From Reclinomonas americana ATCC 50394 (Eukaryota), in assembly GCA_048213135.1 (NCBI GenBank), contig PS015059.1, positions 150,511-214,510 of the forward strand: a DNA stretch of 64,000 bases, in the 5' to 3' direction. This document shows positions 521-50,400 of this stretch, piece by piece. Numbering within the stretch: the first letter of the stretch is position 1; the number at the start of each line of letters is the position of its first letter. The notes beneath the pieces are model-generated. The model did not search any database. It saw nothing but the letters and a program-made list of their open reading frames with translations, and was not told the DNA's origin. A program made the position numbers and the translations under genes.

Positions 521-1688
521 CCTGAAGTCCACGTGTTCGAGTCGGAAGGCTCCATGGACATCGGCTTGATCACTTGTGAAGTTTTGCTGCCGCCCGGCTA
601 CGTCCTCCTCAGCGGAGGCGTGCAGGTCACTCGATCTACCGTTTGCCCCGCCACCAACAAATTCGGCATCACCAGCAGCTCTCCGAATGCTACCAACACT
701 GGGTGGATCGGGCGGGCCAAGGTCGTTGACGGCACGGTGAGTCAGAAGTAACTGTGATGCGATCATGCACACGAGAGCTCTGTGTCTCACACAGCACGAA
801 CGTCTTCTCTCTTTCTCCCTCTCAGGCAGTAGGAATCCCAGCATGTCACGCTGCCTTGCGGTGCACCGTGAACGCACTCTACGACCCCAGAGGAGTGTTG
901 TATACCACGACCGTCACAGGGTCGGCAAGCATCACTGCTCGCGGTAGCGCTGGTGTGGCGGGCAGCACCGTGCGTCGACGTCGCGATTGCGTCACCTCCG
1001 GGTTTCTTGCACCTGAAACTTTGCCTCGCAGAGCACCTTGGCCGCAACTCCACCGGCTGGTTTTGCAGGTGTGATCACCGGCGGCGGCGTCAACGCATCC
1101 AATACAAGATCGACGGCGTACACGGCAAACTGCCACATTCTCGGATCCGTTCCGCGGATGAATGGAAACACCGTGACGGGGTGGCAGGGAACGGTCTCCC
1201 TGACTGCGCGCGGCGCATTTGTTGCGTGTGCATGCATGCTCATGACCAGACTCAACAAGATAATTTGTCGCTGACATGTATACACACAACAGGCGGACTG
1301 TCAGTACCAGGTGTTCGTCATCACTGTGCGCAGTAAGCTGTCGAATCGAGTGCTGCAGACCACCGTCGCGTCCACTCAGGCCTTGACCAGCTATAGCACC
1401 ATTGCCGCCCCGGTGGGCATCACCGGTGTGCCGGATGGTTTCAGCGCCGTCGGCGGTGGCGCTGTTCTTGCCACCGTGTACGGAACGACCGCCATCAGCT
1501 GGTGTACCACATTGGCAGCCACATACGGAGCTTACTTCACCACCGTTGGCACCATCACCTTTGATGCGACCGCTGAACCATTCCAATTGATGGTGTTCAA
1601 CACGGTCGCCAACCTCGATTCGTGCGACCTGTCGCGGGTGCGGTTGACCTCGTTCACTTTGGGCATGCGAGTTCAGGTGACCATCTGA
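275..1688 (+). CDS. Secreted protein of unknown function, paralog A (5 exons; signal peptide; three PxG[YF]xxxxGG repeats)
   Basis: ATG 275 MRAHTLLAAAVLLLLATLTLVHA; GT-AG introns with donors at 386, 737, ~970, 1221 join ORF pieces 479-, 826-, 1032-, 1293-1688 in frame; same exon structure as paralog B. Confidence 0.8.
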
Positions 1689-2070
1689 GGAGTGCTCGAG
1701 GCTTGCGGGGTGCGTTCCGAATGAACTCGATGCTGTTCTCAGTCGATTGCGATCGATATCAATGATCATGACATCTTTCTTGTTCGTCGAACAATCACTC
1801 TAGATCTTCCACTCTGCGCATGATGTGTGAGTGCGCTGCGCCAATGCGTGTGGCACCACGGCCAAAAAAATAATAGAAAACTTCACTGATCCATACACAA
1901 CAATGAGCATCTACCAGTGATCGCCGGCGCCAGCATGCGCAATTGCAAGTCGAGTTTGTCGTTCTCGCTTCTTGCAAACGCGTGCACATGCATGCGTCAG
2001 AGAAGTCGAATGCGGAGATCTGCACATGTGTGCACGCTTCCCACGCGCGTCTTTGCTTCCTCGAGGTCAA

Positions 2071-2430
2071 GAGCGGGAAAAGCCGTTGCGGAAACTCGGA
2101 AATAGAAAGGGATTCGCGCGCGCGAAAAAAATCTCGTCATTTTCTTTTTTCGCTTTTGTGTGAGAGAGAAAAGGCAATGCGCGCGCACACTCTCTTGGCA
2201 GCCGCCGTGCTGGTGTTGCTTGCAACCCTCACGCTGGTGCACGCAGACCCTGCGCAGAGCATGAACGAGCAGCTCAGCATGGACCCTGTTGCGTTTGGTT
2301 TTTTGTGTCGTGGTCACTAGTTTTCGCGCGTTTTTCTCACTCTCACGCTCTCTCTCTCTCCTTCCCCCTCTCTCTCAGGTGGAAAATTTTGTCGAGGCAC
2401 TGGGAGTGACACCTGTTGCTCCTGTGGTGA
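2071..2430 (+). repeat. Direct repeat copy 2 of 165-520
   Basis: gagcgggaaa...ctcggaaatagaaa...attcgcgcgcg...atgcgcgcgcacactctcttggcagcc shared with copy 1. Confidence 0.85.
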
Positions 2431-3575
2431 CCACATTCGAGACGAGGATCACCTGTGGCCAAAGTCTTCCATTCTGCCCCTGCTCCGCGACATTGCCGTC
2501 TGGCTACGCGCTCGTTGGTGGCGGCGCTGAGATCATCGCCACTTCGGATTATGCATGCACCGGCCCACGCCAGCCCGCCTTGACGCAAAGTACTCCTGAT
2601 ATATTTTCCAAGCAAAGCTGGAATGCAATGGCTGCGGTGAGTCAAGAACATGGTAATCTCCACGCAGAGCAGCGCTCTTCTCACGCAGATGTCTCTCGCT
2701 CTCTCCGCGCCCAGACCACGTCTGGATCGTGCGTATATACTTTCCGGTGCTTCGCAAATGGTGTTCGCAACCCAGGAGGACAGCTGTACGATGTGACCAT
2801 TACAGCGTCGGCCGGCTACGGCGCACGAGGCAGCACCAGGGCGTCAACCATGCTGCTTACTGTGCGTCGCGGTGACACCGCACTCTGATCTTTGATTTCA
2901 CTTAGTGCTGACGCGCGTGTGCATGATGCGTCGCAGCAATCGATTTCCGTGACCGCTGCTGCTGGATCAGGTGTCGTCACGGGCGGTGGCATCAACACTG
3001 GCAGTCGTGGGACATCGGGCTATCCCGGTCAGTGCTACCTTGCCGAGTCAGCCCCCGTAAACAATGGATGGAGGGCAACCATCGCGTTGACCGCAGGAGG
3101 CCTTGTTACGTGTGCAGTCGATGCATTGCTCGTTTCGGTGACGCGGTGCACTCACCAACCCTGTGTGTTGTGATCGCTGTAGGCCGATTGCGGTTTCACG
3201 GTGTACGTCATCTCCCTCCGCAGTCGCCTGCCAAATCGCGTGCTGGAGATTGTTCGAGTCAACGATCGCACTCTGTCCACCCTCCCCGAATTTACCGTGC
3301 CCACCGGGTTCATCGGCGTGCCGGACGGCTACAGCATCACCAGCGGTGGTGCGTCTGTAGCCGTCACTTACGGAACCGCTGAAGACAGCTGGTGCCGAGA
3401 TCGGGTGTCCTCTCGGGGGACTTTGCTCTATACACTGGGCGCGTTTACCCTTGAAGCCGCGGAGCCGTTCCGGCGCACGTCGTACAGCGCGCTTGCCAAC
3501 CGTGATCAGTGCGACTTCTCCAAGGTGAAACTGGTCTCGTTCGCGATTGGCCTGCGAATTCAGGTGACGATCTGA
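2177..3575 (+). CDS. Secreted protein of unknown function, paralog B (5 exons)
   Basis: Near-identical signal-peptide exon to paralog A, same intron positions, shared C-terminus (G[ML]R[VI]QVTI*). Confidence 0.8.
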
Positions 3576-3919
3576 GCGATGGTAGTCGACGATCATTCTC
3601 GAATGAAGTCCTTCGTGTCATCATCGTCGACGTCAAGTTCGCAGCGCCCAAGGGTTGAATTGGACGGGGGGTCAAGTTCCAGAGAATAGGATGTCGACGG
3701 TCGATGTTCTCTTCCATCACCTCTGCGATGTCTCGATGGCGACCGTCATGCATGTGTTATTGGGGCGGGGCAGATGAACTCGCTCGGGGTAGGTGGGTTG
3801 CCCGGTTTGTCCGCTTTGTCGTGTTTTGACAGGATATTTGGCATAAAAAGATGCAAAATCGACAGCGTTCACCATTCGTCTTTTTCATCTCTCTCTCTGA
3901 GCCGGAGTAACTTCAACCC

Positions 3920-6900
3920 ATGGATCGCAAGCGCCGAGGAACCAAGCGGAGCTCCCGCGATGTCGACAGTGAGGACGACGACCATCTCTTCCCGGCACCG
4001 GATCCGGATACCGGCGCAGACTTGCCCTTGGACGGCCAGCCCGAGAAGAAGCGACGCAACGCCCGCCCATCGCTGAACAAGCGAGGCGATGGCGAGGTCA
4101 CCGACGGCGGGCGTGCGGCGGCGGAGCCGACGAGTCAGCGATCGCGATCACGAGCCCAGCGCCGCATGGCGCGCCACGCCTACACCACGGACATGTACGG
4201 TGCAAGTGGCTCCGGTGTCGGCGGTGACGTCGAGGATCCCGAGACCACTGCGACGCGCAAGCTCCCCGAGTTCGACCGGTGGTGGTCGTCCACCATTCTG
4301 CCGCATATCAGCAAGTCGGACGAGGACATCGACGAGGACGACGAGGCGTCGTCGTCAGCGTCACAGGCAGCCGACTACGTGCGTGCACAAGAAGTAATTC
4401 TTCCACTGCGCGTCATGCTGCTGTTTGCTGACACACTCATATACATGCAGCTGCTGACTCCGCTGCAAGTCGAGTTCCTGAGAACGATGGTTCACAACTT
4501 TGTGCGGCAGCGATGCGGCGACAACAAGCAACACCACTCAGTGCCGCAACTTCGCATCGGTTGCTTGCCCACCGGTGAAGGCAAGACGCACATGATCCCG
4601 GCTGTGGTGTTTGTGATGCACGAGCTCATGCAGTGGCTCGAATTCCGTGCGTTGTCTCTGTCGTTCGATGTGTTCGTGTTTCAATATGTGTGTGCTCACC
4701 TGCCAGCGAACGCATCTGCATGCAGCGGACCATCACGGGCGGCGTTCGATTCTCGTGGTGGCCAAGTTGAAGAACGAGGCCTCTGCCATTCGCGAGCGCT
4801 TGCTGCGGGCGTTCGGGAACCTCTATGCCTCGAAGAAGAGCGGCAAGTCGGCTGTGCGGCAGAACACTCTCGGCCGCGGTGCCATCTTCGTCGGCAGCAC
4901 CTGCAGCGATAACCAGACAACTTTCAACGTTTGTCGCGAGTACGGAAGCGGTGTGTTCAATGGCAGCGCCGTGGCGCGCTGGACTGGAGCGAAGACATTC
5001 GTGGCCGTCACCTCCAACCGCTCGACTTCGCACATTGTCGAAGCCATTCACGGCCCTCCCAAGCTGTTGCCCACCGATCCGGAGTTCTCTTCCAGTTGCG
5101 CTGCATTCCCACTGCACTGCATCATTGCGGACGAGTTGCATCTGGCCGCGACCTTGAAGAAGTCATACACTGCGGAGAAGGATGTTACGTATTACTTATG
5201 TGTGCCCCTCACCGAGAATATCAGTGCGATACTCACTTTGTACGCATTATTCTGGTACAGCCGCTCTGGGGCATTGCAACCGAGAAGGGTCGCCGGTGGG
5301 CACAGCCCGGTGGCGATGCGCGGGAGCGGTTCACGTCACAGTTCGCGATGATCGGCCTCACCGCCACTCCGGGATCGATCGCTCCGACGTTCATCAACAA
5401 GGTGTTTTCGACCTCTGGCGACTTCCAGAAGCGCTTCGTGGACAAGCTCCCGCGGACGCAGGAGTCACTCCTGCAAGGCGAGCTTCGCCATTACGGACCG
5501 AACCGTGGCATCCGTCAGGTGTCGCAGTCGGTGACGATGCTGGTCGATGGATCAGTTGAGGCCGGCAGCCGTCTGCTCGACCACCTGGCCGAGGCGCACA
5601 GGCGTCGGAGCACTCACATTGCGAACCGTGGTCTCGTGACTGTCGACGACGACGATGACAGTCCACCGCCGGTGCGTGAGTGCGAAGTGGCTGCCACGGT
5701 AAGTCCAGCTGTCCAAGTAGTTCCCCCATGTGCTCCTCCTGCTGATACCGACAACGGTGCTCTGCTACCACAGCACGCGGCATACGGATTGTCTGGACTT
5801 CCGATGGCCAGCATTGACAGCGCGGTTGGTGTCGTCTGTGCCCTGGTCCGCGATCGCCTTGCGGATGGGGACCTTGCTCGCGGGTCTGGCCACGCCGCTG
5901 CTGCCGACATTGACGACAGCGATGCGATGAGCGTGGACTCTGCTGGTTCCAGTTCTGGCCCTTCAGGCGCAAGCGCAAGCGCTGCTGCCGATGTCGCCAT
6001 GCACGTGCCGGCTGTCATCCGAGGCAACACCGATATGGATGACTGCTCAAGCGAGGCAGCCGACGACGGCGAGTGCCTTCCGGGCAGGTCAGGCACTGCA
6101 GTCCAAGCCGGCATGTCGTTAATGGTACGCACTGCAAGATTACTGCACGATTGCAGTCGTGTATGTTCCGGCGCACTTCACTCACCACATGCGCTCGTGC
6201 GCAGCTCGAGGCCGCAGCCCTGTTGGCTCGTGCTCGCGACATGGACATCAGCGGTTGCGGCGACGACGAGGGCTTCCCGCAGTTTGCTATTGCCCTTCCA
6301 CCTCGAGCCGCTGAAAGAGCGAGTGAGGAGCCGTCGGTTCGCGTTGTTCGGCTGGACCTGGGCGGCCTGGCTTCGATGCGGCCTTCTCATGCACTGTCCA
6401 ACATGGCATTCGGCACAGGCGCCGACCGTGTGGAGTGCAAGACTGAGCACGCACCCGTCTCGAGCTTGACTGGCAAGCAGGGAACTTCTCCGTCGTGCCT
6501 CCTCTCACAGATTCTTGTGTGGGAAGCCGAGAAGTACCGGCAGGGTCAACCTGAGGCTGGCTACTGGGGTACTTTGCGCAACGGCCATCGGCTTCCAACG
6601 TGGCCGCACGCCATGGCAACACTGGTGGCGCTACTTGCCATGCGAGTGGACGACCAGACACAGCTCGTGTGTAACGACTACTGCCTGTGGTGCCACGGAG
6701 AGGTGAGCTACAACACGGTGATCGCCGACGGCTACGTTCGTGCCGAGGTCGCGGCCGACCGGGACGAACGTGCACTCTTGCACAATGCGGACCAGCTGGC
6801 CATGGACAGCGGACTCCTCGACAATCTGGGGGCGGCATGCACGATGGCCGGCCTGCATGATGATGAGGTGCGGGCTCTCATCGGCTGCGACGCTGCCGAC

Positions 6901-8284: not shown

Positions 8285-8546
8285 TTAACAGAAAACTAAC
8301 CGCGTCGAGTCAAACATCTTGAATGCGAGGTCCGACTTGGACTTCCATTCTGTCTCCAGGCACACCAGTTCCGTGTACCACGCCGTGTGCTCCAGCAGAA
8401 CGCAGCGCACGAAGAAGCAGATGGCCAGATAGCCCTTGGTGACCACTTGGCCCACAAACTGCACGGCTGGCAGTCCGTTCCAGTCCACTGCGGTCTCCGC
8501 GTTGAAGGTAACGTTGTCTGGCGCATAAATGTGAGTCGAGTGGATC

Positions 8547-8615
<69 letters not shown>

Positions 8616-8855
8616 CGACGAAGAAGAGAGTACGTACGACACGACGTCGTACGGTACGTACGTTACGTTACGTACGTAACTAACCTTCCTTCCTTCTTCT
8701 CTCCTCCTCCCTCCCCTTCCCCCNNNNNNNNNNNNNNNNNNNNCGAGACCGTTCCGTACGTCCGTACCTACGCGGTCGTCCGTCCGTCGTACGGTAACGG
8801 TTAACGGTTACGTTCGGTCGGCGCTAAATAAGTAGTAGTACGACGTAGGAGACGT

Positions 8856-8923
<68 letters not shown>

Positions 8924-11468
8924 CGCGAGAAAGAGAGATCGATCACGCTGCGGATCTTAGTGTACAAATACTCCCTCTTTCTCTCTCTCTCTCCCCCTCC
9001 CTCCCGCTTCTCACCCTCCGGCATTCGTCGTCGCAGACTGTTCTGCGCGTGCGTCACGATGTCGCTCAACGTGCGCATTCGCTTACGTGGCAACGTGTGC
9101 ACAAACAGTTGCGCGCTGAGGTCGCTGATGGAACCAGTGCGGTAGGTCTCAATAAAGGTGAACCAAGCGGTCGACAGGTTCTGATCGTTGAATGGGCGCC
9201 AGTTGGACGGCAGCTCAATGTGGAAGCCGGTGTCGGTGCTTTCGAACTTGAGGATGACTGGGGAGTGAGGAAGAACGAGAGGGGAGTGAGGAGGATAAAC
9301 ACCGACAGAATAGAATGTAAGAGAAACGCGACACGACCGAGAGATAAAATCAATGCGAAAGGAGAGGGACGCGCTCCAACTGTGAACCAACTCCCTCACT
9401 TCGGCTGCGCACTCACTTTCTGACGGTCGCGGATCGACAATCAGCGGCACGGCATCATATGGCGCAGGTCGGAATGACTGCAGCACATAATTGACCACCT
9501 CCTCGTACTCGTCCTTGTCGTCCAGTCCGTATGTGCAGTTGAATACATACGCGCTGTCCTCCTTGTGTGGTACAGGCACCACCACCTGACACACGACAAT
9601 GTGTTGAGCCGTTGAGTTACACAGTACCAACGCGAACAGGCAAACCTGAATCACGACACGATCCAGTCCGGGAGCCACGTGCTCCACACCCGAGTTGCGC
9701 AGCGCCCGTACCATGACATCATCGTCTACACGCCCGCGCATCGATCAGTCTATCGTACGTGTTTTTCTCGCCTGCAGTGCAGTGCAGCGTAGCCCACCCA
9801 CCTCCCATCTTCACCGGCTCCATCCGCTCCGTAAAATCGCAATCCATGTTGCGCATCATGGTCTCCGCCAACTCCTCCAGACCGACGACGTGATTCGCCA
9901 CTCGCAAATCGATTGTCATGTGCAACCTGTGCACAACCAATAGTAATCGTGAGAACACTGAGCAAGGCGCGACGTCTTCCCCCACTTATCAACTCACCTT
10001 GGATCCGTGTTGGGATCCTCACGGAACAGATGCAGCAACATATCGGGCACCACACGAATGCGGTGCACCAGTGTGGCTGGCCACTGCAGCTCGCAGCGGT
10101 ACTCGGGATCCTCGTAGCGGAACACCTTGCTGAAATCGACACGAATGGGTGCGTCCGTCACAATCACTGTCTCGCAGGCGCGATGGAAATCCTGCACCAG
10201 CGCATCCTTGTTTGGCACTGCACCAGTCGACATCACCAGCAGCAGGGAGAGCCACTTGCGAGCGTGCACGCACAGCAGTGTCCACTGCCGCGCCGGTTGC
10301 CGTCGACCGTCCGAGTAGTTCATCACCATGTCTTGGCACATGAGCATGGCTGGGACGCCGTTGGGCAGCGTCAGGCGGCGCTCAGGGCCCACCAGTGGGT
10401 GGCACTCGGCCATCTGCTGCTTGGCGTCCTCCAGCGTGAACGAGTCGGCGCACTTCTCCATGGTGAACAGCACCTGGGCGTCGCGTGCAGGCAAGAGTGA
10501 GGAAAGAGAGGAGGGAGAGGGAGAGGGAGAGGGAGATAGGGAAAGGCTGTCCACACACACGCACACAGAAGAGAACAAGCCCTTCCCATGATGTTTTTGA
10601 CGACAAACCATGGGTCGCTCTCGCTTCTTGAGCTTGGGCACGGGGATGCGGAACTGCACCGGCACGTTGACACGGGGCTTGCGCTCCTCAATCCACGACG
10701 CTGGTCGCACAAACGAGAAGCCGGCAAGGTCGTACGAGAACGCCACAGTCCCACTGACCGCCGCCGCCGCCACCGACCGCGCAGCAACAGGTGACGAGGC
10801 CTTTGCCGGAGCAGCAACTGGAGCAACAGGAGCAGCAACAGGAGCAGCAGTGGCCACTGGCGACGACGATGACGATGCCTGCGAGCTGGGCGACACCAAC
10901 GCAGCAACATGCGCGGCACCTGTGAGCGAGTGAGTGTGAGTCTTTCTCTTTTTTGCTGGTGGTCATTTCACGCGCCATGCCACTCACCGTTCGCCGCCCT
11001 CGGCAGTACCACCACTGACGGCGCCTCGGTGCCCACATCCACCGGCGCCAAGTGCAACGCATCGCCCACCGGCGGCGACAGCGCCGAGGCCCACGGTTGC
11101 GGCTCTGTCACCTCTGCCATTGCTCGTGCCGACGGCAACAACGCATCGTGCTCCTCCTCTGCCGCCGCCGCCGCCTCCTCATGCACAGTCGCAAACAGAC
11201 GACGACTGCTATCCTCTGCCTCTGCCTCTTCTTCCTCTTCTTCTTCCTCATCATCATGCGCAGTCACTGTTGTTGTTGTTGTGGTGGTGGAAGTTGTCGT
11301 CGTCGTCGGCGATGCTGGTGAGGAGGCAAAGTGTGCGAGCAAACCGAGACCAAACACGGTGGCTACGGCACCGGCGCCCACTGCCACCAGCTGCTCATCA
11401 GAGGCCTCGTCCACGCGCTTGTCGAGCCACGAGCCAGCCCGCTCAATCAGCGATCCCAGGTACTCCAT
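8285..11468 (-). CDS. N-terminally anchored protein with three tandem PsbP/Mog1-like domains
   Basis: Hydrophobic segment LVAVGAGAVATVFGLGLLAHF, low-complexity linker, then three units starting FSFVRPASW, CELQWPATL, FHIELPSNW; exons join in frame; last intron contains an N gap. Confidence 0.55.
8550..8612. repeat. (CA)n microsatellite, intronic
   Basis: Direct observation. Confidence 0.95.
8724..8743. other. Assembly gap (20 N)
   Basis: Run of n. Confidence 1.
8860..8921. repeat. (CA)n microsatellite, intronic
   Basis: Direct observation. Confidence 0.95.
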
Positions 11469-11552: not shown

Positions 11553-12235
11553 ATGGGCGATCGACGCGCGTCGTATGGTGGTGGCGGTGCACCAGCGTCC
11601 TCGGGCGCACGCGCAGGCAGTCGCTTCTCTGCGCGCCATGACGCCGCGCATGTCCCCGCCGCCACTGCGCCGCCTCCTCCTCCTCCTCCACCGCCGCCTT
11701 ATGGAGCTGGACCGTATGGTCCTGCGCCGCCTGTGCCACCACCCCCACCACCAGGCGCGTACTATCAACATGCATATCATCATCAGCATCATCAGGCGCC
11801 TCCACCACCGCCACCACCTCCACCGCCACACATGCACGGCTACGGTGGTGCTGATGTTGCGTGCTGCGTGTGTATGTGTGTATCTTTGTGTGTCTTTGCA
11901 CTCATGTGATGCAGCAGCAATGGAATGGTGGCTACGGGTATCCACCGCCTCCACCACCGCCACCGCCGCCTGGCTACGGCTATCCGCAGCATGCGCATCC
12001 TCCACCGCCTCCGACACTGGCGCCGCCGCCGCCGCCACATCAGCCGCCGCCTACGATGAGCGAGGCGGCGCTGCGACGCGAGGCGGAGAGAAAGGCGCGT
12101 GAGATGGAGCTCATGGATAGCGCGAGGGCGCCGGTGGCGTTGGGCTTGGTGCGCGACCCGGGCGAGTTGGACTTTAATGTGGCCATGGAGCCGGCCAGAC
12201 CTGCGATCTCTCCGTTTGAGTTGGCCAAGCAGCAA

Positions 12236-12289
<54 letters not shown>

Positions 12290-13980
12290 GCTGGGCGAGC
12301 TGGTGGCAAGTTGGGGCCTGCTGCGACGGCGAATGGCGCGACAGCTGGTGCTGCAGCGGCTGGCGGGTCGAAGAACACTCTGCTGGTCCGCGCGGGCGTC
12401 GGTCGTCGTAGTGCGAATCCGCTGCGGTGAGAGGCACACACCTCGAGTCTTGCTTGCTTGACTGCGCTCACCTCTCTGCGTGCAGTATCAACCCGGACTT
12501 CTTGTGCACCATGCGCTTCCACACATGCGTGCCGGATGTGCCTGTGGAGTCCAAGTTGCTGCGACACGAGCACAATCCGCAACAGTTCGCAGGCTACGCA
12601 GCCACGTCATTGGAGCGCGACTACAAGCACCCGCTGCTGGTGGACCTTTTCCGCGCGATTCCCATTGATCTGATCAATTCGTCGACCTATGCACGCAGTT
12701 GAGCGATACGCCACATGTAGAGCGTGAGGCACTCTGTGCTCACCGAAAAAAATCGCAGATCCCGGTCGCCGGTTGGCACGAGAAGATGCAGCGCTGTTCA
12801 CGGCAGACAAGCCAAAGAAGCGCGGCGACATTGTCGAGCAGCCGGCGTACTTGGTGCCGACCGAGTACATCTCGGCCAGCACCGGCAGCATCGGCACCAG
12901 CGTCAAGAGAAGGCGCAGATCGGAGGACGAGAGCAAGTTGCGTGGTGGTGGTGGTCCTCTCCTCTCTCTCACGCATTCACTCAAATTTCCGTTCCCTCTA
13001 CTCACCACAGCTTGGGTGATATGATTCGCGAGCTTACCGAGGAGAGTCGCGAAGAGTTGGTCAATCGCTTGGCCAAGTCGTTCCGTGAGGCGTCGAAACT
13101 GGACGCCAACCTTCTGGTGCGGCTTGCTTCCGCGAGCGGGTTGTTGTTCAAATCGATCCACTTACTCACGTCTCTCTCTCTCTCTCACACACAGAATGGC
13201 CAGCTGTCACACCCTGCACGTCGCGACGTGTACGCCTTGGAAGTGATGCCACTGGTGCCCAGCATCGACATGGTGGCCACTGACTTGCATGCGCTGGAGT
13301 TTCAGCAGAATCCGCGCGTCGGAGAGCTGGTTACTGGTGCGTTGCCGGTCTGTTCTTGAAGACTGCTAACTGGCTCACTTGTGATTGTGCGGTGGTGGAT
13401 GGTGCGTAGCTCGCGGCTGTCTGTTGACGGCGTCGGGTGAAAAGGGCGAGATTGTGACGTACCTGCAGCCGGAGATTCCAGGTCGCGACGGTCAGTGGAA
13501 AATTGCAGAAAACATCAGTCGCGATGGAGCGCGCTCACAGTGAGAATGCGCAGATTTCGCCGGTGGTGCCACGTACGTGTGCACTCGCGAATACTCGCGA
13601 CGAGAGCGCGGCACGCAAGGCGATTTGTTTGTGGTATTTTCTGTCGACGATCAGCTTCAGTTTGCATCCGTCTCGGCATACGCCGAACTGCAGCCTCTCA
13701 AGGGTGGTTTGGTGAGTCGCCGGTTGGCGTGCGTTCTTCTTTTGGTCGTGCACGTCCCTGAGAAGAAGGTGCCGTCGGCGCACAGGATGGTGTCACGACG
13801 CGCGATGTTACCGATCGACCATTTTCTCGCGAAGAGAGGGAAGCGCGACTGACGCGTAAGAGGCGGTGGAAACCCGAAGAAGACGACGTGGAGGGACCAA
13901 GTGGTCTCTTTGGCGATGGCGACGACGGTGAGGAGGAGGAGGAGGAGGAGGAAGCCGAGACGGGTTCCGACTCGGATTGA
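11553..13980 (+). CDS. PAF1: RNA polymerase II-associated factor 1 with Pro-rich and polyQ N-terminal extension
   Basis: DFLCTMRFHTCVPDVPVESKLL...ATSLERDYKHPLL...IPIDLI and YLVPTEYIS, HPARRDVYALEVMPLVP match Paf1 family motifs; acidic C-terminus; 7 introns. Confidence 0.85.
12229..12288 (+). repeat. CAG/CAA trinucleotide run encoding about 20 Gln in PAF1
   Basis: Direct observation. Confidence 0.95.
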
Positions 13981-15188: not shown

Positions 15189-17671
15189 ATGTCGCAACAA
15201 GGCGCGCCGTCGTCTCCTCAACAACAGCAAGCCGGCGGTGGAGGCCGCCCCGTGTCTCGTGTCGTCGGCGTGCCCGCGCGAGCCTCTTCACCACCAACCA
15301 ACGCACGCCGCGCCACTCCTCCTCCTCCAGCTCCCGCAGGCGCAGGCGGTGCGCTCAACCGTGGCGCCGCGTCCGGCTCGTCCTCGCCACCTCGCCAGCA
15401 CCCGCCCTCGCCACCGCGGTACCCGCATCCTCCGAGCATGCCCTCGCATCATCACGGGAGCACGCGCGTGGTGGGGGCGGCGGCGGGTGGCGGTGGTGTT
15501 GTCACGGGTGGCAGCAATGGTGGCGCCGTGCGGCATGTGCCTTCGGCCGTGAGTGGCGCAGTAGGCGTGCGAGGGGTGGGTGGCGCCGAGCCGCGCCTGG
15601 TCGTGGCCTCCGGCAGCGCCCCGCCTGTTCCGGTATGCGTCGATATGTGTGTGTGTGGAAGAGTGCGCTTGTGTTGCTGATCTCTGGTCGCGATACAGCA
15701 CTCGTTGCCGGAGGAGTTGCAGGCGGATCTGGAGTCGGCGTTTGAGCGGCTGATGGTGTCGGCGGTGGCGTTGCCGTCGTCGGGTAAGGTGGGCGCGTTG
15801 CTGTCGGGCACGGGCGGAGCGGCGCGTGGACGGGCGCCGGCGGCGAGTGGCGGGGGAGATTCCGATTTTGTGGTGGTGGCGGGTGCTGGCGACGATCGTG
15901 AGGCGTTTCGGGCGCACCGGTTCATTCTCAAGGCCCGCTCGCGCTACTTTGACACCATGTTGTCGACGGGTGTGTGTGCGGCGCTCACTTGCTCGCCGCG
16001 TGCGTCGTTGTCTCATTATGCGTGTGTGTGTGTGTAGAATCGTGGGCGGAGAGCTCGAGTGGGATTCTTGAGGCGCCGAATGTGTCGCCGGATGTGATGC
16101 GGCGCGTGCTGCGGTTCATGTACACGGGGCAGGCGGAGCTGCACGATGCGTGGGTGTGCGAATTGTTGGATGCGGCCGATGAGTTTCAACTCGACGCCCT
16201 GTGCCAGTTGTGCACGCATCACATTGCGGAGCGCGTGGAGCCCGACAATATCGTGCCCGCCGTGGTTCGTGTGGCCCCCCGACTCGTACTACATCGCTTG
16301 CCGATATTCACATTGCGTGCAGAGTGCGGCGCTGAGTCGCGGTCAGATGGGGTTGGTCGACGAGCTGCTGAAGGTGGTCGACGATTTTGCCGACGAGGTT
16401 CTGCGCGGCGATGCGCTGCTGACGTGCCCGCCCGAGTTGATGGACATGATTTTGTGTCGCGACAATCTAGCGGCTGACGAGGTCGACGTGTGGGATGCGC
16501 TCGTCAGATGGGGCAAGTGAGTTTCCAAGTCGTCGCACTCCACGTGTGTGTGTGTGTGTGTGCACGTGTTTGTTGATTTTCGCTGGCCGCAGACATCGAT
16601 GTGGGATTGTGGAACCGGAGGCGCGACTGTGGACCGAGGCCGAGCGAATGAAGCTGCAAAAGGAGGTGCGACCGCTGTCGAATCATGTGCGCCTGCTGCA
16701 CATGCCGAAGGAAAGGTGAGTGCGTTGTGTTCTGCGCACGAGGTGAAATCGCCGTTTTGCTCACGCGTGGCTTGCAGGTTTGCGGAGGTCAAGCTCAGTG
16801 GTTGCGTGGCCGATGCACGGTTACAGCAGTGGGCTTTTTACAACATGGCGCCCTCGTTGTACGAGAAGGAGAGTGGTGACATGCCACCTCGCAAGGGTGT
16901 CGGTGAGTCTTCAAGGATGGATGTGCGCTTTTTTGAGTTTGGTTTGGTGCTCATTCGTGTCACAGTGCGCTTCAACGACTCGGTGATTCTCGATCGGGAG
17001 CAGCAGCGACAGATTGTGGAGTGGCTGGGTGATCGCGAGTCACCGCCCGCCGGCTACCGTGTGTGGGATTTGCTGTTCCGCGCCAGCCGCGATGGATTCG
17101 ACAGCAGCTCGTTCCACTCACACTGCGACGACAAGGGTCCGACGGTGGTGGTGCTGCGCACGAGACAGGTTTGTGTGCGAAAACCAAAGGAGGAAGGGGG
17201 AGCGAAAAATGCGAGACCTGAATTTCTTCGCGTGTGTCGCACAGGCGGCCATTTGCGGCGGCTACAGTTCGCGATCGTGGGAGAGTGGCACCGGCACCAT
17301 GCGGCAGGGTGCTGGCTGCTTCGTGTTCACACTGCAGGGCGGTGGCAGCGACGGGCCGAATGGTGGTCATCCGGCCAAGTTTGAGTGTCTCGACGAGGCC
17401 AACTCAATCTACTGCGCCAGCAACTACGGCCCGCAGTTTGGATTTGGAGTTGCGCGCGTCCCTCCCTGCTGTTCTTCTTGCGAGTCCGTTGCTCATACGC
17501 GACAACCAGGGTGACTTGTACGTGATTGACGGCAACCAAGCCGGTAGCTTCATGCCACGCACCTACGGCGGCGCCGGCACCAGCAATCTGACGCTGGCCG
17601 GCGAAGAGAGCTTCCAGCTGGAGGACTATGAAGTATTCGCCGTCCATCAGCGTCGGCCTCGCAGATTGTAA
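15189..17671 (+). CDS. BTB/POZ-BACK-TLDc domain protein
   Basis: SDFVVV...FRAHRFILKARSRYFDTML (BTB); DEVDVWDALVRW (BACK); LLFRASRDGF...FHSHCDDKGPT...YGPQFG...DYEVF (TLDc). Confidence 0.9.
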
Positions 17672-36550: not shown

Positions 36551-39500
36551 TGGTTCACATGCAAGCATTCTTCTATCTACACTCATGCACGCACTCCAAC
36601 TCGCTCGCATACACTCATACACACTCACTCTCACGCCTCGTCGTACATACCCCTCCCTCCCTCCTCCTCTCTCTCTCTCTCTTTCTGTGTGCACAAGCTC
36701 GCCATTCTCCAATGCACAGCTGTCATTTCGCGCTCACCTTCAAAAAAATGCATGTGCATCATCAGCTGATGGAGGAGGATGCGGTGGTGCGCGAGTACTT
36801 TACGACCAAGGGCCACAAGAAGCGCAAGCCCGAGCGCAACGATTGGCTCATTGAGTTTTTCAACTTGCCGCCCACGGAGCGCGTGTTGAATGGTCGGGGA
36901 TTGCGTTTTCTTTTTCTCTTTCTCTTTCGTGCCTTGCTCATTGCAGTGCGTGCAGACTTCTCGTGCGCCATCCAAAAGGCCATTCTGCTCCACGGTCGCA
37001 TGTACGTCACGCAGAACTTTATGTGCTTCTACTCCAACATCTTTGGCTACCGCACCGAGGTGCGGCGTGCTTGCTTGGTGGTGGCGGCGACGTGCTCCCC
37101 TTCTGTGTTTGGCACTCACTCTGATGCAGATCCGGCTGTCGTTCCGCGAGTTCCTGCAAATCAAGAAGCGCACGACGGCACTGGTGGTGCCGAATGCCAT
37201 TGAGGTGTTCACCGAAGACAAGAACGTTGCGTGGTGGGCGTGCGTGCGGGGAGTGTGCGCCATTTTTTGTCGCTCACCACGTGTCGGGCACGCAGTACTT
37301 TTTCGCGTCGTTTGCGTTCCGCGACCAGGCGTACCGCGTGCTCTCCGATGTGTGGTCGATTCATCGCGAGCTGGACCCGGAGCTTGCCGAGGTACGTTGC
37401 CGTGTGGTTTTCTTGAAGAAAGCAAGCAGCATTTGGTGATGACATTTTATTTGTCTCCACGCAGCGGCAAGACCGACGCGAGCGCGAGAAGCACGGCGAC
37501 GGCGATGCGGCGTGGTCGGACGACGGAGATGCGGCGCAAAGTTGCACGCCATCATCCTTGTATTTCCCTTTGATTTTTTTGCTCACATTGCTCTCGCAGG
37601 CCGTGGAGGACGCGGCGATGGTCGGCCACATGTTCCGAGTGACGGGGATGTGGATGACGACGAATCGTCATCGTTCGCTTCAGGGCCCTCGTCGAGCCAC
37701 TCGCATGGCGGCACTGTGAGTCCGTCGGAGGCGTCGGGCGTGGCGAGTGCGTCCGGTGCCAGCGGATCGGGAGTGCACGTGAGTCCGACGCACAGCGTTG
37801 TAATACGTACGTGCAAGCGTGTAACTGTGCGTGTGTCCACTTGTTTCCATGTCGACAGGATGACGCTGATGCGGCGGCGGCAAGAGCGGCAGCCAGCGCA
37901 CCTGCTGCTGCTGCCGGCGGCAGTGCCGGGGGTGAAGTTGTGTTCTCTCTGACATTGTGTCGTATGCGCTGCCTACGCACGTGCGCGCTCACCATTCATT
38001 ATTTGTGTGCCGTATAGGCGTCTCGCGCGCTGCCGCCTTCGGTCGACGAGGCGCCCGGTCAGACGTGCATCAATGGCGACGAGTTCCCGCCAGGTGAGTA
38101 TTTCGCCTTGGTGGAGGAGTGCCGCGCACTTTGCTCACCAAACAAATCGCGACAACAGGCGTGGAGTGGAAGGAGATGCACTCGGGCACGCTGCCGGGTA
38201 CACCGGAGCAGATGTTTGATGTGTTTTTCTCCGACAGCTCCAAGTTTATGCCCGAGTACCACACGTTGCGGCTCTCTCTCCACTCTTGTATCTCTTGTCC
38301 GTCACTCATGCGTGATTCTATCAGTGCTCGCAAGGATGTGGACATTCAGGTCGGGCAGTGGCGCTCGCAGCCCGGCATGTTCGGCATCACGCGCACGCTC
38401 AATTTTCGCACCAAGATCACCATTCTGCTGGCGCCGGCGTGGCACGAAGTCAACCAGCATCATCGTCTCTGGTCAGTTGCACGCGACTTGCAGTTGCTTC
38501 TCATGATCGGCAATTGACCTGTTACTGTCTCTCTGTTTGTGAACACAGGTTTAGCGATAATCGCCGCATGTTGACTCTGGAGATTGCCGCGTGCACACCG
38601 AATGTGCCGAACGGCACCAACTTCCGCGTCTCGTCGCGTTTCATCTTTAAGCAGCAGGGCGGTGCGTATTGTGTGATACCAGCCGTGCGTGACCGCTACT
38701 CATTGTCTCGCAGAATCGTGCTCGTTCCTGATTGAGGGTGGCGTCGCGTTCCTGAAGGACATTTGGTTCAAGAGCAAGATCCGGGTACGCGACGGAGAGA
38801 GATATTGAGTTCCCGTCCCCTCTTGTCGCTGACACAGAAATGTGCGTCGCAGAGCGAGTCGCAGAAGCAGAGTACCGAGTCGTATGCGTTGTGGTTGGAG
38901 CGCGCCAAGGTCGCCTTGCGCAATCGCCCTGCCGTGAGTGCCAGTGCCTCGGCACCACCGCGTCCGCCTGCCCCAGAGGCGCAGGTCAGTTCCTCTTCCA
39001 CTTGCCTGCTGTATTTGATACGATGCCATAGTGCATTCACGGTGAAATTTGCGTCGCCCCCCTGCAGCCTCGAGCAAATGCTGCTCCGCCTCGACGCACC
39101 AGCAGCCGCGATCAGGTTGGGATTACTTTGCTGGTCGTGTGTGCCCAGACAGTCACTCATCACGGCAAGTCGTTGTGTGTTTCTGAATGCAGACGGGAGA
39201 GGCGGATGCCGCCGGAGACGGCTTGGTGAGAGACCTCTTGTTGTTTCCGTCTACCGTTTTCGTTATGCGATACTCATCAGATGCTTGTGTGTCGCGTGCA
39301 GAGGCACCGAGGCAGCGGGCGAGGTATCACAAAACCACCTTGCTTCTCTCTCACCCTCAATGTCCTCACCGAATGTTTCCCATTTCTAAAAAGCTCGCCG
39401 CGTTCCATCGTCGCACGCCATTGAGGCCGACAGTGGAAAGGTGGAAGAAGTCGGTTCGATGTTGCAAAAGAACTCGGCTCCACTCTTCGATCTCGGAACG

Positions 39501-41558: not shown

Positions 41559-42987
41559 ATGGCGAAACTCACGAGTGCGTCGCTGCCTACACAGTTGGTG
41601 CACACACTGCGCGGACACGAGTTGCCTGTCCTCAGCATTCGATTCACGCGTTGCGTTGTGCGTTGACTCGACATTTTCACACTCCCGCTCGCTCACTTGT
41701 ACACACAGGGAATGGCGAGTACTGTCTGTCGGGCTCGCAAGACAAGACCGTGCGCCTGTGGAACCCTCACAAAGGCACACTCGTCAAGACGTACGTGGGA
41801 CACGGGCATGATGTGCACGATGTGGACATGTGAGTGCTTGGCAATCCTCCTGTCATACGATACGCATCGACTCCTCACTCGACGTGCAGCAAGGACGACA
41901 ACAGTCAGTTTGTGTCGTGCGGAGGCGACAAGGCCATCTTTCTGTGGGATGTCACCTCTGGGTCCACATTGCGACGATTCCGAGGTCACACGGCGGTGAG
42001 GATCGCAATGCAGCAAAGCAGGAGATATTGTTTGACTGACCGCTGCTGCGCTATCTTGACAGCGCGTCAATTCGCTTCGCTTCAACGGCGACTCGAGTAC
42101 GTTTGCCTCGGGTTCGTACGACAAGACCATTCGCTTCTGGGACATGCGCAGTCGCTCGACGGAACCCATTCAGACGCTGGAGGATTTCACCGACAGTGTC
42201 GCCAGTGTCGACATTCTCGACTGTGAGGTGGTTGGCGGCTCGGTGGATGGCTCCGTGCGAGTCTACGATGTGCGCACGGGGAGAGTGCACACCGACCAGT
42301 TGCATAGTTGCGGAGGGAGAGTCCAAGGGCCAGTTGAGCTTTCCCCCCTTCTCCGTCGCCGACTTGTTGCCTCGCAGGCCCCGCCACCTCGGTGGCCTTT
42401 TCGCACGACCAAAAGTGCATTCTGGCCAGCACGTTGGACAGCCGCTTGCATCTCATCGACAAGGCGACGGGAGACATTCTCAACGAGTTGCGCTTGGGGG
42501 AGGGGCGGACCCACGGCCTTCCCGTCTCGTGTTCACGCCCATCTCCGCAGGTACAAGGGCCACGTGAACAACTCGTACAAGATCGACAGCCGCCTGCTGT
42601 GCGCCGACGCGTTTGTGGCCAGCGGGAGCGAAGACAATCGTGTGGTGTTCTGGGACTTGGTTGATGTGAGTGCCCAGCAGCGCGCAAGGGCGCTGGTTCT
42701 TGATAGCCGCAAGCCCACACTGCCATCTCTCTCTTTCGCTCGCTGCACAGGGCAAGATCGTGCACTCACTGCAAGACCACACGCGACCGGTGGTGGCGCT
42801 CGCCTACAACTTCCAATACAACATGCTGCTCAGCGGCTCGTCGGACGGCACCATCAAGGTGTACGAGGCGCCGGCCGCGGCCGAGGCGCCCGCGGACGTG
42901 GATGGCGACACGATGATGCGTCCAGTGGGTGTGGCACCGCCTCCACCACCTTCGCACACGCCAGCGTCGTCGTCTAGAACAAGATAA
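41559..42987 (+). CDS. WDR83: WD40 repeat protein MORG1
   Basis: GEYCLSGSQDKTVRLWNP, FVSCGGDKAIFLWDV, WDMRSRSTEPIQ, GSVDGSVRVYDVRTG, YKGHVNNSYKI, SGSED. Confidence 0.93.
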
Positions 42988-43023
42988 AAATTCGCATAGA
43001 TCGCATCTGCTTCGTTTTACACA

Positions 43024-45923: not shown

Positions 45924-45955
45924 CAGGCAGTGAGCGCAAATGTACATTCGATTCG

Positions 45956-47416
45956 TTACTTGTCTCGTCGGATCCCAATGACTGCGTCGGCCACCGATCG
46001 GGACACGATGAATGCCGTGCCCGCACATCCTGCAAAGAGCAAAGGAGGCGTTAAGACACAGAGGGAGAAAGAGAGAGAACCGGCTTGCAAATGCACAGCA
46101 GCTGCACATACCCATCATCGTGAGCAGAATCAACTTGATCGGTTCGTTGATCAGCACATCTGCACGCGCGAGACACAATCAGTGCTCGGCACGACACCAC
46201 ACCGAGAATGAGCAGCAGTTCGTCACCTTGCAGCTACAGAGGCAACCAACAAGCAACGTGACAAACAACAAACAACAGAGAGTCAGACGTCAGTGCGCAA
46301 GAAGGGGGGAACACATGTCACATGCCCACACACGTACGTACCACTGCGGAGCGAAAAACGCAGTGAGGCAACAGAAAAGGGCGCAAAACGGATTGCCGGC
46401 TGGCACACTCACCACTGACGAAGGAGGCGTTCGCGACACTGCTGGCACCCTCCGTGTCGGTGAGAATGCTGCGAATGGAGCAGGTGAGAACTCGTCGCGA
46501 ATGCTACCAAGATCGAGAGCCACCTACCGAGCGACGGTGAGCAATGTCAGGTACATGAGGAATACGCCAGTGGCCCAGGCCAGAGTGAAACACACGGGCA
46601 CGAGCCACATGGGGAGAGACCGGTGCTGTTGATGGGCGAAAAGGTCATGAGTGTACAAGCGACAAACAAAAATGAGACACTGTCACGCGCACCGTCCAGC
46701 GCCACCAGAAGCGATTCCATCGATCTACAATGGCGTCACAGTCAGCGGCGAAATCAAACACAATCACGCACTTGGCTCGGGTGTGCGTCACACAACAACA
46801 ACGCAACTATTTTCCGTGCCGGCCGGAGGCTGGGCGTTTGTCATAAACTCTGGCGGGATAGTCGGTGTGCCGTGCGAACTCGGCATATCCTCGCTACTGC
46901 TCGAGCCCTCCCGCACGCTTGCGGTGCGGCTCACGCTGCGCGAGCGCCGCCGATGGGTAACAACTGAACTCTGCTGCTGGTGTTCTGGCTTGTCGACAGC
47001 CTCTTGCAGACTGCTGCCGGTGGAGCCCGTGTCGCTCTCGCCCACAGACTCAATGTCGGAGAAATGATCCACAAGACGACGATTGATGCCACCACCAGCG
47101 ATCGCCGACGGCGGCACCGGCACCAACGACGAGTAGTTTGCTGGCACATTAGGCGCCTCGAGTTCACCATCTGGTGCGTCGGCGGTGGCTCCTGGCAGGG
47201 CGAAGCTCGAGTTGTACACGCTGCGCGCGTGCACCAAGCGCGGCAGGAGCGACCGAATCATCTGTTGCACCACATACCAAATGAGGGTGATAGAGGCGAA
47301 GAAGTAAAACACCCGTAGCGCAGAGAGGGAAATGTGACCTTGAATTCGCGGCCAGTAATCGGCTTGGAGGCATCTGGCGTCACGGCAACATATGGGGCTC
47401 GAATGCTGCGGACAAG

Positions 47417-47453
<37 letters not shown>

Positions 47454-50400
47454 CACGTAAGAGAGCCTCTACCATGCTACAAGACAAATGTGGAATGTAC
47501 CCTGCAGGTTTGCTGGGAGTGAGGATGATGCCACCGAGCATCGGCACCGACGGCGGAGCGTGCATGTCGCCAGCGATACGGTAATTCGCTAACATGCTGG
47601 CCAAGATGCGACTCTGCGCCACGTCCGTGGAGATCTGATTGACCCACGCACGCTGGTACTCGTGCGGCTGCAGCGATGGCACAGACGCCGCACGCGAGCT
47701 GTTGACCCAGGTGAAGAACGCGCGCTGCAACTCGGGAAGCGTGAACATGTCATTGACATCGTCTGCTTGCCATCGCTCAATCTGTGGCACATACAAGAGA
47801 GGATGAGTGCCGCGGTGCACTGGGTATGCACCATCATCGACAGCGTACCTGAAGCCGAGCATAGTGGATGAATGCACCAATCACATTTCCGCTGCGAATC
47901 ATGAACAGACACAGGAGCTCCGGGAGCGCCGAGGTCTGCTGCTCGACGGCGAGGCCAGTGGCAGGCATGGTCGTCTGTTGCTGGGCTTGTGCGATGGCCA
48001 ACAGGGCACTGCGTCGTCGCGGACGCGGCATTGAGCTCGGGAGCGGAGGTGGGGACGGGTTCGACAACGGAGGTGGCATCGGAGACGTCCACGAAATCAT
48101 CGGCACATTCTTCGGCATCACATCTTCCCAGAGTACCACTCCCTGCCCGACCGGCACAGTCCTATCAGCACTGGGCGTAGCATCAAAGTCCGCCATGTCA
48201 ATACTGGTGAGCGGTGCGCTGGCATGCTCCTGACGTTGCAGCTCGACGAGCTCCGAGTCGGCCGGTGACTGGGCATACCATTGCATGACAGTCGACGAAG
48301 CCACTTCGAGACGCGGAGTGCGCTTGAAGGGCTCGGCAATAAGTGCAATCACCGGAAGCATCACGAAACCTACACGCAACGCAGCACGTACGTGTGTGAG
48401 AGAGCAAGAATAGGCGACATCCCAGTTTCCCCTTTCGCGACAAACCAGAAATGATGCCCATCCAAAAGTCGCGCAACCAGCTGGTGAGATCCGATGTCGA
48501 ACTCTGCTCTGCCAGCACCGAGTTGATGTACACGGCGAGGCAAACACCGAACCAGAGGACCTACAAAGATCTCAACACAGGTGAGAAAGCGCGGTGCACA
48601 GCTGAACGTAAGCGCTTTGTTCACTCACAGTGAGCTTTTGCGTGCGGCGGAATGTGTCCGCCTGCGGGCCAGTGGCTGTTGAGATCCACGAGTGCTCCTC
48701 TGCACAGCAACAAGAGAAGCGATAAGAAATAACACCACACGTACACACAGTGCGCAGCTGTTGCAAGACGACAAAACCTTTGATGGCCGTGTATGCACGG
48801 CGACAGAATCGAGTCAGAACACCCGCCTGCCGACGCTGTTCCATAACCTTGGTGACCAGGCCTGGTGCGCGAACAACAAGGTGAGTGCAAGGAGCAGACT
48901 ATCCTGTACTCGCCTAATGAGACGCAACGACGGAAGTTGGCGACCGCGGCCAGATGCCGCAGAGCAGCTGCTCGTGTGCCGCCGACGAGAACTGCAGTAC
49001 GCGATTGCGATGGTCATGAGACTCGATCACCACCTATCACACACGCACGTTAACATGACGCAACTGCCGTCGGTGCGCGCGGCGTGTGTGAAGCTGAGGC
49101 CGTGTGCTCGAAGCGCGTGGCGCACCACTTCTTCAAAGGTGAACATGCTGAGAAGGAAAACACACAACATCATCAGCGTCATACTCCGTCAACAGTTTTA
49201 TGTTGGCAAAGCTGTGACGCACCCGCGGAAGGCAGTAGTAGCTCCCTCCGTGTCGTGTCTGTTTCGCAGTTGCTGCTGCAGTTGCATGGCCGCCACGATC
49301 TTCTTGCGGAAGATGGAGAGGAGGCGCATGTCGACTCGCCGATCCACATAGACGAGCACCAGGAAGACGACAATGTACAGGATGTTGAACACTGCAAGCC
49401 ACCGTCACAATCAGAGTGACTGCAGATGCAACGGGTCGACTCTCCGCAACACAAACCAAGCAAAAAGTAGAATGGCGCGCTTTGCAAGACTCCCGACGAC
49501 AGCACCAGAGACACATCGACCGGTCTGCAACGTAGTCAGTCATCATTTAGCGTCGCACATCAACCACAAAGACGAGGGCCGACGTCAGGCAGTACGCAAC
49601 GAGACAAACGTAAAGGACACGTCAAACAGCGCGTGCACTGCATGCGTATCCGTTAGCAAGGCACACGTTCTGCACACAATCTCTCACTGCACACTCACCG
49701 TCGACACTAAAGTCCGTCAAATGATTGCACTCACAGGCAATCGACGACACCGTGTTGCTCCCGGCGTCCACTCGCAGCAAAGCGGTGCAGCCGTCGCTGC
49801 GCCACGCGGAGGCCGTGGCGTTCCAGTACACGCACAACTTGGCCAGCGCATCCAACACGGCTGCACACGCATGCATGTTAACCTTCACGAACAGCAACAG
49901 GGTGAAGGAGGCGCAAGAACGAAACGATTGGCGGCCAGTTGCGGATACTTGTCCACGTAACCACGGTCGTCACACAGAGTGTTGTTCAGACGCACCAGAC
50001 GCGCGAACGGCACTGGCGTCGCACCCGACGCGCCGTGATGCGTGCGCACACCGCAATTTTCGACATACTCGACCACTTGTTGCTGCGGCAATCACACACG
50101 TTGGCTCGAGCGGGAAGAAGAATCGAATACGGAGAGAGACGCGCGCACGTACCAATGGTTTTTCAAGCTCGCGCAGCAGCGACGAATCCTGCTGCACGAT
50201 CTCAAACAGCACCTTCTCTCCACTGGTACTGTTCAGCGCCAGCTCCACTCCGTGCTCACTGAACAACGAGAACTTTTGCACCGGCGCCGCCAGACGCAGT
50301 TGCAGTGCCGAGTAGAACACGTCACCATTCGGGTCGTTGTTGGGCAGAGACGACGCCACTGCAATGCGTGTCAGGAGCACAACATTGATAGATAGAAGGC

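Follow-up and report, generated by a model that had tools for sequence, protein, structure and literature searches.

The question raised by a 64-kb stretch of nuclear DNA from Reclinomonas americana ATCC 50394 (GenBank assembly GCA_048213135.1, contig PS015059.1, positions 150,511 to 214,510 of the forward strand; hereafter the window, with positions counted from its first letter) is whether its introns begin with two kinds of 5' splice site, and if so how the second kind is read. In well-studied eukaryotes, the guanine that closes the exon and the guanine at intron position +5 are the most conserved donor positions beyond the GU. Roughly one intron in every five or six within the window starts instead with GTT, usually as GTTGCG, in which an extra T at +3 places the internal guanine at +6. 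The evidence assembled here makes it very probable that these sites are real donors and that they form a major class. With less confidence, we consider it probable that the GTTGCG(T) sites are true 5' splice sites belonging to short U2-type GT-AG introns and represent a second donor class, with which U1 small nuclear RNA (snRNA) pairs in a register offset by one base.

The window has a G+C content of 59%, contains three gaps of 20 Ns and is rich in short introns, whose predicted median length is about 73 nt. These introns were located with a dynamic-programming gene finder, the 3-periodic coding model of which was trained on the window's own DNA. In a donor-agnostic pass, introns were segments of 35-400 nt running from GT (or, at a penalty, GC) to AG, removed at a flat cost with no motif assumed; a self-trained pass also learned, as a table, which four bases follow GT, together with a matrix for acceptors. 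GTTGCG makes up 95 of the 8848 GT sites on the two strands of the window (1.07%), and was the commonest donor hexamer in the donor-agnostic models (11 of 120 introns; binomial p = 8.7e-8). In the self-trained models it opened 24 of 156 and 25 of 159 introns, which places it above GTGAGT (19-21) and GTGCGT (14).

The original prediction, an earlier reading of the same letters, had listed 37 donors of this kind and put them at roughly a fifth of all introns. Each of the 37 coordinates carries the motif claimed for it on the strand claimed (33 GTTGCG, two GTTACG at 3105 and 5184, and two GTTGAG at 12698 and 45596), and the share of the class among modelled introns, 27 of 159 (17%), is consistent with that estimate and would be higher if the additional sites in the list hold. 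The strand-resolved set of models recovers 20 of the 37, and 12698 and 12937 were recovered additionally in a + strand model (11909-13977) that strand resolution had discarded. Altogether, 38 of the 95 GTTGCG copies are donors, 24 of them predicted by the models and 14 claimed in the original prediction only; the non-donor copies number 55-57, depending on the donor set. One of the latter, at 27963-27968 on the - strand and directly ahead of the acceptor TAG in an ordinary GMPPB intron with a GTGCGC start, does not serve as a donor, which shows that the motif alone is insufficient for donor use. The models also supplied GTTGCG donors beyond the earlier list. That at 32938 (-) was both predicted and ranked first in a profile scan, those at 19640, 20038, 52660 and 56907 (-) and at 44008 (+) come from model prediction only, and that at 32761 (-) is doubtful, as homologues read through it.

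Where the encoded proteins have recognizable homologues, the exact position of a junction can be examined by asking which splice best restores the conserved sequence. Homologues were gathered by single-exon queries, and for each intron all GT or GC to AG pairs in a wide interval were scored against a profile. Profiles contained 72 of 120 homologues fetched for FCF1, 10 of 12 for a mitochondrial carrier, the 6 of orthologue length among 25 for WDR83, and the 12 full-length sequences among 150 for GMPPB. The introns examined in this way, and two others placed by domain boundaries, are as follows (a slash within a peptide or nucleotide string marks the junction; bit scores are given for the GTTGCG donor and then for its best competitor):

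34212-34276, + strand: FCF1 intron, phase 1, 65 nt, GTTGCG; first of 84 pairs, 174.3 vs 169.1 bits
33811-33878, + strand: FCF1 N-terminal intron, GTTGCG; first by just 1.0 bit, 13.0 vs 12.0
33927-33997, + strand: FCF1 N-terminal intron, not resolved; GTTGCG at 35.8 vs 36.0 bits for an in-frame GTCAAC 6 nt upstream
31879-31943, - strand: mitochondrial carrier intron at RAFPANA/VTFLIYE, GTTGCG; first of 11, 44.5 vs 39.3 bits
32874-32938, - strand: intron of the same mitochondrial carrier gene, absent from the earlier list, GTTGCG; predicted, and first of 18, 59.8 vs 57.6 bits
41650-41708, + strand: intron 1 of a WDR83/MORG1-like gene, GTTGCG; first of 22, 57.1 vs 53.9 bits (6 orthologues)
42307-42377, + strand: WDR83-like intron, GTTGCG; first of 13, 160.5 vs 154.4 bits
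42487-42550, + strand: WDR83-like intron at LN/E..YKGH, GTTGCG; first of 12, 93.6 vs 87.0 bits
27451-27526, - strand: GMPPB intron at GNVLI/HPTA, GTTGCG; first of 26, 271.5 vs 266.1 bits
23754-23815, + strand: intron within the GYF domain of a CD2BP2-like gene, at WASA/GYF, GTTGCG; model-predicted
17449-17509, + strand: intron of a TLDc-domain gene at PQFGFG/GDL, GTTGCG; 61 nt, removal restores the frame

The GTTGCG donor ranked first at eight of the nine junctions scanned and second, by 0.2 bit, at the ninth (33927). The original prediction had pinned several junctions by conserved protein motifs, and for GMPPB (27526), the carrier (31943), WDR83 (42487) and FCF1 (34212) the profile scans place the claimed donor at the top. 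At 34212 the residues matched by tblastn are contiguous across the splice, at 31943 the homologues run ANA-ATFLAYE without a gap, and at 27526 the match to the Pfam GMPPB_C profile begins, at profile position 9, on residue 2 of the downstream exon, which fits the junction. The CD2BP2 junction at 23754 is borne out in the same manner: Pfam GYF positions 1-24 stop at residue 60 in an upstream exon of 61 residues, and GYF opens the exon that follows. For the TLDc junction at 17449, the restored reading frame and a TLD profile match whose last residue is number 66 of the upstream exon's 68, two residues short of the donor, speak for the claimed site, but the gene models picked a different donor; searches of the PDB with two TLDc exons gave no useful match. 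Frame restoration was also checked by eye at several introns.

A natural comparison of the two classes comes from a pair of tandem paralogues on the + strand, at 275-1685 and 2177-3572, which share 79% DNA identity over their alignment. Both encode secreted-looking proteins with a common N-terminus (MRAHTLLAAAV..) and C-terminal end (..QVTI), and upstream of the genes the DNA is nearly the same in the two copies. The introns concerned, each positioned by the alignment of the paralogues, are:

386-478, + strand: intron 1 of paralogue 1, ordinary GTGCGT; counterpart of 2288-2378
2288-2378, + strand: intron 1 of paralogue 2, GTTGCGT; one extra T at +3
1221-1292, + strand: later intron of paralogue 1, GTTGCG; its start, TTGTTGCGTGTGCA, is conserved in paralogue 2; not model-predicted
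3105-3182, + strand: intron of paralogue 2 homologous to that at 1221, GTTACG; not model-predicted

The first introns are homologous; exon 1 is 111 nt long in each gene, with the same end, and the acceptor is the same. The donor reads TCT/GTGCGTGTGG in paralogue 1 and CCT/GTTGCGTTTGG in paralogue 2; an indel of a single T at +3 changes the class of the intron and leaves the junction unmoved. For this intron of paralogue 1 the gene model took an in-frame GTTTTT 9 nt downstream, a choice that the alignment disfavours. The later homologous intron starts with GTTGCGTGTGCA at 1221 and with GTTACGTGTGCA at 3105, and a 3-nt in-frame indel lies in the exon just upstream of the former. The paralogue alignment thus supports the donors at 2288, 1221 and 3105; together with the enrichment of the motif and the orthologue profiles, it sustains the contention that the sites are real donors and a major class.

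What distinguishes this class is a discrete heptamer, GTTGCGT. All 37 listed donors have T at +3 and G at +6, and after the GTT come G in 35, C in 35 and G in 37 of the 37. The one-letter neighbours of the motif are almost never used in the same models (GTTGCC in 0 of 55 copies, GTTGCA in 1 of 46, GTTGCT in 2 of 63, GTTGTG in 0 of 50), nor does any other base serve at +3 (GTCGCG in 0 of 89, GTGGCG in 0 of 125, GTAGCG in 0 of 13), such that the extra base is T only. The seventh position is T in 29 of 40 GTT donors vs 16 of 55 non-donor copies, which parallels the T at +6 in 56% of ordinary donors. Those ordinary donors conform to the earlier description: 94 of the 156 predicted have G at +5, mostly as GTGAG, GTGCG, GTACG, GTATG or GTGTG, and they can be summarized as G/GT, G at +3 in 61%, A, C or T at +4 (34, 35 and 26%), G at +5 and T at +6. 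Some have C at +3 and are backed by homologue profiles, namely GTCAGC at 34074 (+) in FCF1 (76.1 bits vs 68.5 for the GTGCTT chosen by the model) and GTCTGC at 33102 (-) in the carrier gene; the ordinary class therefore tolerates each of the four bases at +3, provided that G stands at +5.

Upstream of the junction the classes also differ: the exon ends with G at 2 of 37 GTT donors vs 63 of 94 ordinary donors (p = 3.6e-11). In the remainder of the intron they are alike. Median lengths are 70 nt for the GTT class and 73 nt for the ordinary class, phases and acceptor logos are similar, both end with CAG, and a branch-like CTNAY motif occurs in 14 of 22 introns of the GTT class and in 44 of 72 ordinary ones, within their final 50 nt and with its A some 16-19 nt from the 3' end. 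Introns of the class therefore have what characterizes U2-type GT-AG introns: GT and AG ends, a frame that is restored by their removal, and a branch-like motif and pyrimidine-rich tract before a CAG acceptor. A U12-type identity was considered and rejected, given the GTTGCGT motif, acceptor and branch features like those of ordinary introns and the lack of a U12-type branch box: CCTTRAY was found in none of 118 predicted introns of up to 150 nt, and the GTT class has no ATCC-type 5' motif such as RTATCCTT.

Taking the donor status, frequency and anatomy of the class and the one-base indel of the paralogues as observed, we infer the register and sequence of U1 and the steps that follow. When the two footprints are aligned on GCGT, ordinary donors read G-G-U-G-N-G-U and are cut after the first G, whereas GTT donors read G-U-U-G-C-G-U and are cut before it. 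The signal would thus lie one base deeper in the intron than the ordinary footprint G/GTGNGT, with G+1 replacing the exon-end G, U+3 replacing U+2, and GCGU at +4 to +7 replacing the bases at +3 to +6. U1 snRNA would pair one base off, G+1 with C9, U+3 with A7 and G+6 with C4, leaving U+2 unpaired, and cleavage would remain before the GU, presumably set later by U6, U5 and Prp8. The restriction of the extra base to T, the unused exon-end G, the resemblance of +7 to the ordinary +6 and the preserved spacing of the guanines are together what a shifted U1 helix would predict, and we slightly favour it as the mechanism. In this respect the register shift put forward in the original prediction is supported, since G+1 and G+6 keep the spacing of the ordinary G-1 and G+5 and the exon-end preference is gone. 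The class is not, however, the ordinary consensus merely moved by a base: C occupies +5 in 35 of 37 GTT donors vs +4 in 33 of 94 ordinary donors (p = 1.7e-10), at a position where A, C and T all occur in ordinary donors.

This strictness bears on U1 itself. In nearest-neighbour calculations, a duplex of GUUGCGU with the canonical U1 5' end reaches -1.4 kcal/mol, equal to the controls, and GUUGAGU reaches -5.8; with an ACGUAC end, GUUGCGU reaches -7.3 kcal/mol in the shifted register and GUUGAGU -2.6. By these computed energies, the canonical U1 5' end fails to explain the strict GCG, and they argue for either a U1 whose 5' end has G facing intron position +4 or an additional U1 variant suited to the motif. 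Because G-C-G is strictly required, the 5' end of U1 may pair with C at the fourth intron position through a G in place of the canonical pseudouridine. We advance such an altered or additional U1 5' end tentatively, as a possibility that falls short of being probable. Rfam and tRNA scans of the 64-kb window returned no match and no snRNA gene.

Several observations weigh against this interpretation. A U1 of the ACGUAC type predicts that GTTACG should be as good a donor as GTTGCG, but the counts are 2 and 33. The last two exon positions show no enrichment of the A and C with which a shifted U1 would pair, and the idea that an exon-end G is actively avoided was ruled out, G preceding 4 of 40 donors vs 11 of 55 non-donor copies (p = 0.26); its absence is a lost preference, not avoidance. 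Nine of the 37 claimed donors (11856, 15088, 22259, 22827, 33275, 45596, 46807, 48928 and 49600) are without independent support. The splice positions rest on homology and coding potential, and the register is deduced from about 40 sites in a single 64-kb window. The gene models are crude: 34-37 predicted donors fall outside every class and are probably errors in part, and at least two model donors are wrong by homology, at 28079 in GMPPB and at 34080 in FCF1, where 34074 fits better. A score for coding potential on both sides of each GT site was tried and dropped, as every GT within a long exon scores high and the score does not discriminate.

If the junctions themselves were misplaced, the real donor might be a GC-AG site three bases downstream (GTT/GCG) or some other nearby GT. 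The GC at +4 and +5 of the motif does provide an in-frame GC donor, which was the runner-up in eight of nine scans, but it scored lower in all nine, by 0.4-6.6 bits, and adds a valine absent from the homologues. GTT is moreover not a codon in phases 1 and 2, and none of the GC donors that the models permitted at a penalty appears in the full donor list, so that we regard this explanation as very improbable. Scarcely credible is the notion that a mobile or recently copied intron family, akin to introner-like elements, carries its own GTTGCG start. It was suggested by the exon after the intron at 20762, which, by eye, opens with TTGCGACGCAC and repeats the intron start; yet in an all-vs-all comparison of 156 predicted introns the GTT class shares nothing past the motif except in the paralogue pair, and the introns lie at varied phases in conserved genes. 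In just 1 of 25 introns does the next exon carry a direct repeat, of at least four bases, of the intron start, and an origin by direct repeats or duplication was accordingly rejected.

The remaining alternatives accept the junctions and differ in how they are read. U1 could stay in its normal frame, G+1 pairing with C8 and one U with A7, and loop out the second U at +2/+3. The paralogues differ by exactly this one inserted T with the junction unmoved, and a 'bulge +2/+3' register is described for a few human sites in the accessible part of PMC4856993; given an exon-end G, the bulged duplex is also the most stable computed (-9.9 kcal/mol, ACGUAC-type end). That same duplex, however, should pair the exon-end G with C9, and G should then be at least as frequent there as at ordinary donors (63 of 94), not 2 of 37, nor would a bulge require the extra base to be T with the strictness seen here; we therefore find this model quite unlikely. 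Alternatively, the motif could have a dedicated reader, i.e., a second U1 variant, another snRNA or a protein that matches GUUGCGU in full, without any shift of register, resulting in two codes and two readers. Lineage-specific U1 5' ends that match atypical donors in Entamoeba and Mastigamoeba, as given in the part of bioRxiv 10.1101/2022.06.08.495308 available to us, provide a precedent. The discreteness of the heptamer (33 GTTGCG, 2 GTTACG and 2 GTTGAG, with neighbours near zero), the near-invariant C at +5 set against the variable ordinary +4, the indifference to an exon-end G, and pairing with the canonical U1 end that is no better than for controls all agree with such a reader. Set against it are the 3' features that the two classes have in common and the one-base indel that swaps the class of a paralogous intron, which is simpler with one machinery, though still compatible with two readers; on the whole we think a dedicated reader rather unlikely.

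Unlike the bulge, a shifted helix accommodates the lost exon-end preference and the T-only extra base. Its fullest form would be a true two-register donor code, in which about a fifth of introns are routinely read one base off, the heptamer GUUGCGU replaces the exon-end and +5 guanines, the U1 5' end has co-evolved or a second one exists, and indels switch introns freely between classes. We hold this to be a serious possibility that is somewhat less than probable.

Shifted (+1) pairing of U1 at atypical human 5' splice sites was reportedly described by Roca and Krainer in 2009, and bulge registers at human sites by Roca et al. in 2012. To our knowledge, the only sites at which U1 is known to pair out of register are a handful in human. 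The human shifted register resembles what we propose in its G at +6, its U at +3, its lack of dependence on an exon-end G and its cleavage at the GU. It differs in being rare, whereas the GTT class makes up about 17% of predicted introns here (27 of 159), and in having A-rich sites of the GU-N-AAGU type, whereas GUUGCGU is not explained by the canonical U1 end; the register here is also drawn from sequence statistics. The human bulge registers are alike in having one extra nucleotide after the GU, which accords with the interconversion by indel in the window's paralogues, and differ in that the window's GTT donors show no preference for an exon-end G, of which a bulged helix would make use. 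According to the accessible part of Tan et al. (2016, PMC4856993), which cites Roca and Krainer, a shifted register displaces every base pair by one position, predicted human sites number 68 with a +2/+3 bulge and 51 with a +3 bulge among 201,541 5' splice sites, and all validated noncanonical registers amount to 1.5%. These counts uphold, for the +2/+3 and +3 bulge sites, the earlier remark that such donors are very rare in human.

Closer to the present case in sequence are lineages whose donors have C or U at +4. In the available part of Roy and Bowser (bioRxiv 10.1101/2022.06.08.495308), Mastigamoeba balamuthi combines an ACGUAC U1 with GUGCGC donors, and the GYGCGY donors of Mamiellales and the +4C donors of Thecamonas occur with a standard U1. 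The window's GTGCGT, GTACGT and GTGAGT donors, with C at +4 in 35%, resemble those of all three as reported there, and a U1 with G at the corresponding place would account for the GCG requirement; a class of donors that carry an additional U at +3 is not mentioned in that part of the source. U12-type introns offer a looser analogy, as another minority class with a long, rigid 5' motif and little information in the exon, but the window class is without the ATCC-type motif and CCTTRAY box and has ordinary acceptor and branch motifs. No account of a GTTGCG donor class turned up in full-text literature searches, supplements aside. We accordingly rate the principle of out-of-register U1 pairing as known and the GTTGCGT motif, its rigidity and its frequency as new.

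The remaining members of the class that are supported by models or reading frames are:

20762-20877, + strand: intron, phase 0, 116 nt, GTTGCG; three-frame reading by eye, and predicted
21382-21458, + strand: intron, 77 nt, GTTGCG, followed by a 26-codon exon at 21459-21536; frames checked, the models using the same donor and a later acceptor
21728-21789, + strand: intron, 62 nt, GTTGCG; frames by eye, and predicted
5184-5260, + strand: intron, 77 nt, GTTACG; predicted
22580-22650, + strand: intron, GTTGCG; predicted
26362-26431, + strand: intron, GTTGCG; predicted
30580-30643, + strand: intron of a 2-oxoacid dehydrogenase E2 gene, GTTGCG; predicted
37226-37295, + strand: intron, GTTGCG; predicted
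38265-38324, + strand: intron, GTTGCG; predicted
12698-12806, + strand: intron, GTTGAG; in the + strand model 11909-13977
12937-13010, + strand: intron, GTTGCG; in the + strand model 11909-13977

Elsewhere in the window, the commonest hexamers belong to (TG)n/(CA)n and (TC)n/(GA)n microsatellites, which lie mainly in introns and spacers (e.g., 8300-9000 and 21400-21420). On the - strand, 57228-63999 is occupied by very long open reading frames (of 1106, 766 and 522 codons) in which T, S, A, V and G abound and which are broken by the 20-N gaps at 60392-60411 and 62519-62538; they have the look of a large repetitive protein, of the surface or mucin-like kind, that, unlike the remaining window, is almost intronless. 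In a many-exon gene at 45959-57300 (-), membrane-like segments come after a GPS-like motif (..CECNHLTDFSV..), features that suggest a polycystin/REJ or adhesion-receptor-like protein, and the model of this gene is probably merged with neighbouring genes. The protein collections contain no near-identical entries for proteins of the window, the top match to an FCF1 exon having 84% identity, and the sole hint of a close relative in the collections searched is an 80-residue protein fragment (P0158) with 90% identity to the C-terminal exon of GMPPB. Among metagenome contigs, 11 related loci were found at 59% identity or less, too distant for a comparison of introns, and were not used.

These donors have consequences for annotation and for the study of splicing. 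Gene finders that employ a single donor matrix would mis-annotate at least a sixth of the introns in this organism, and the present gene model likewise mis-annotated GTT introns until it was given a 4-mer table. If our interpretation is true, a commonest donor hexamer that lacks both conserved guanines would mean that, genome-wide, where U1 binds and where the intron is cleaved can be separated from each other. The organism would then offer hundreds of natural substrates for studying the handover from U1 to U6 and the proofreading of 5' splice sites, as well as a clear test case for the co-evolution of snRNAs and splice signals.

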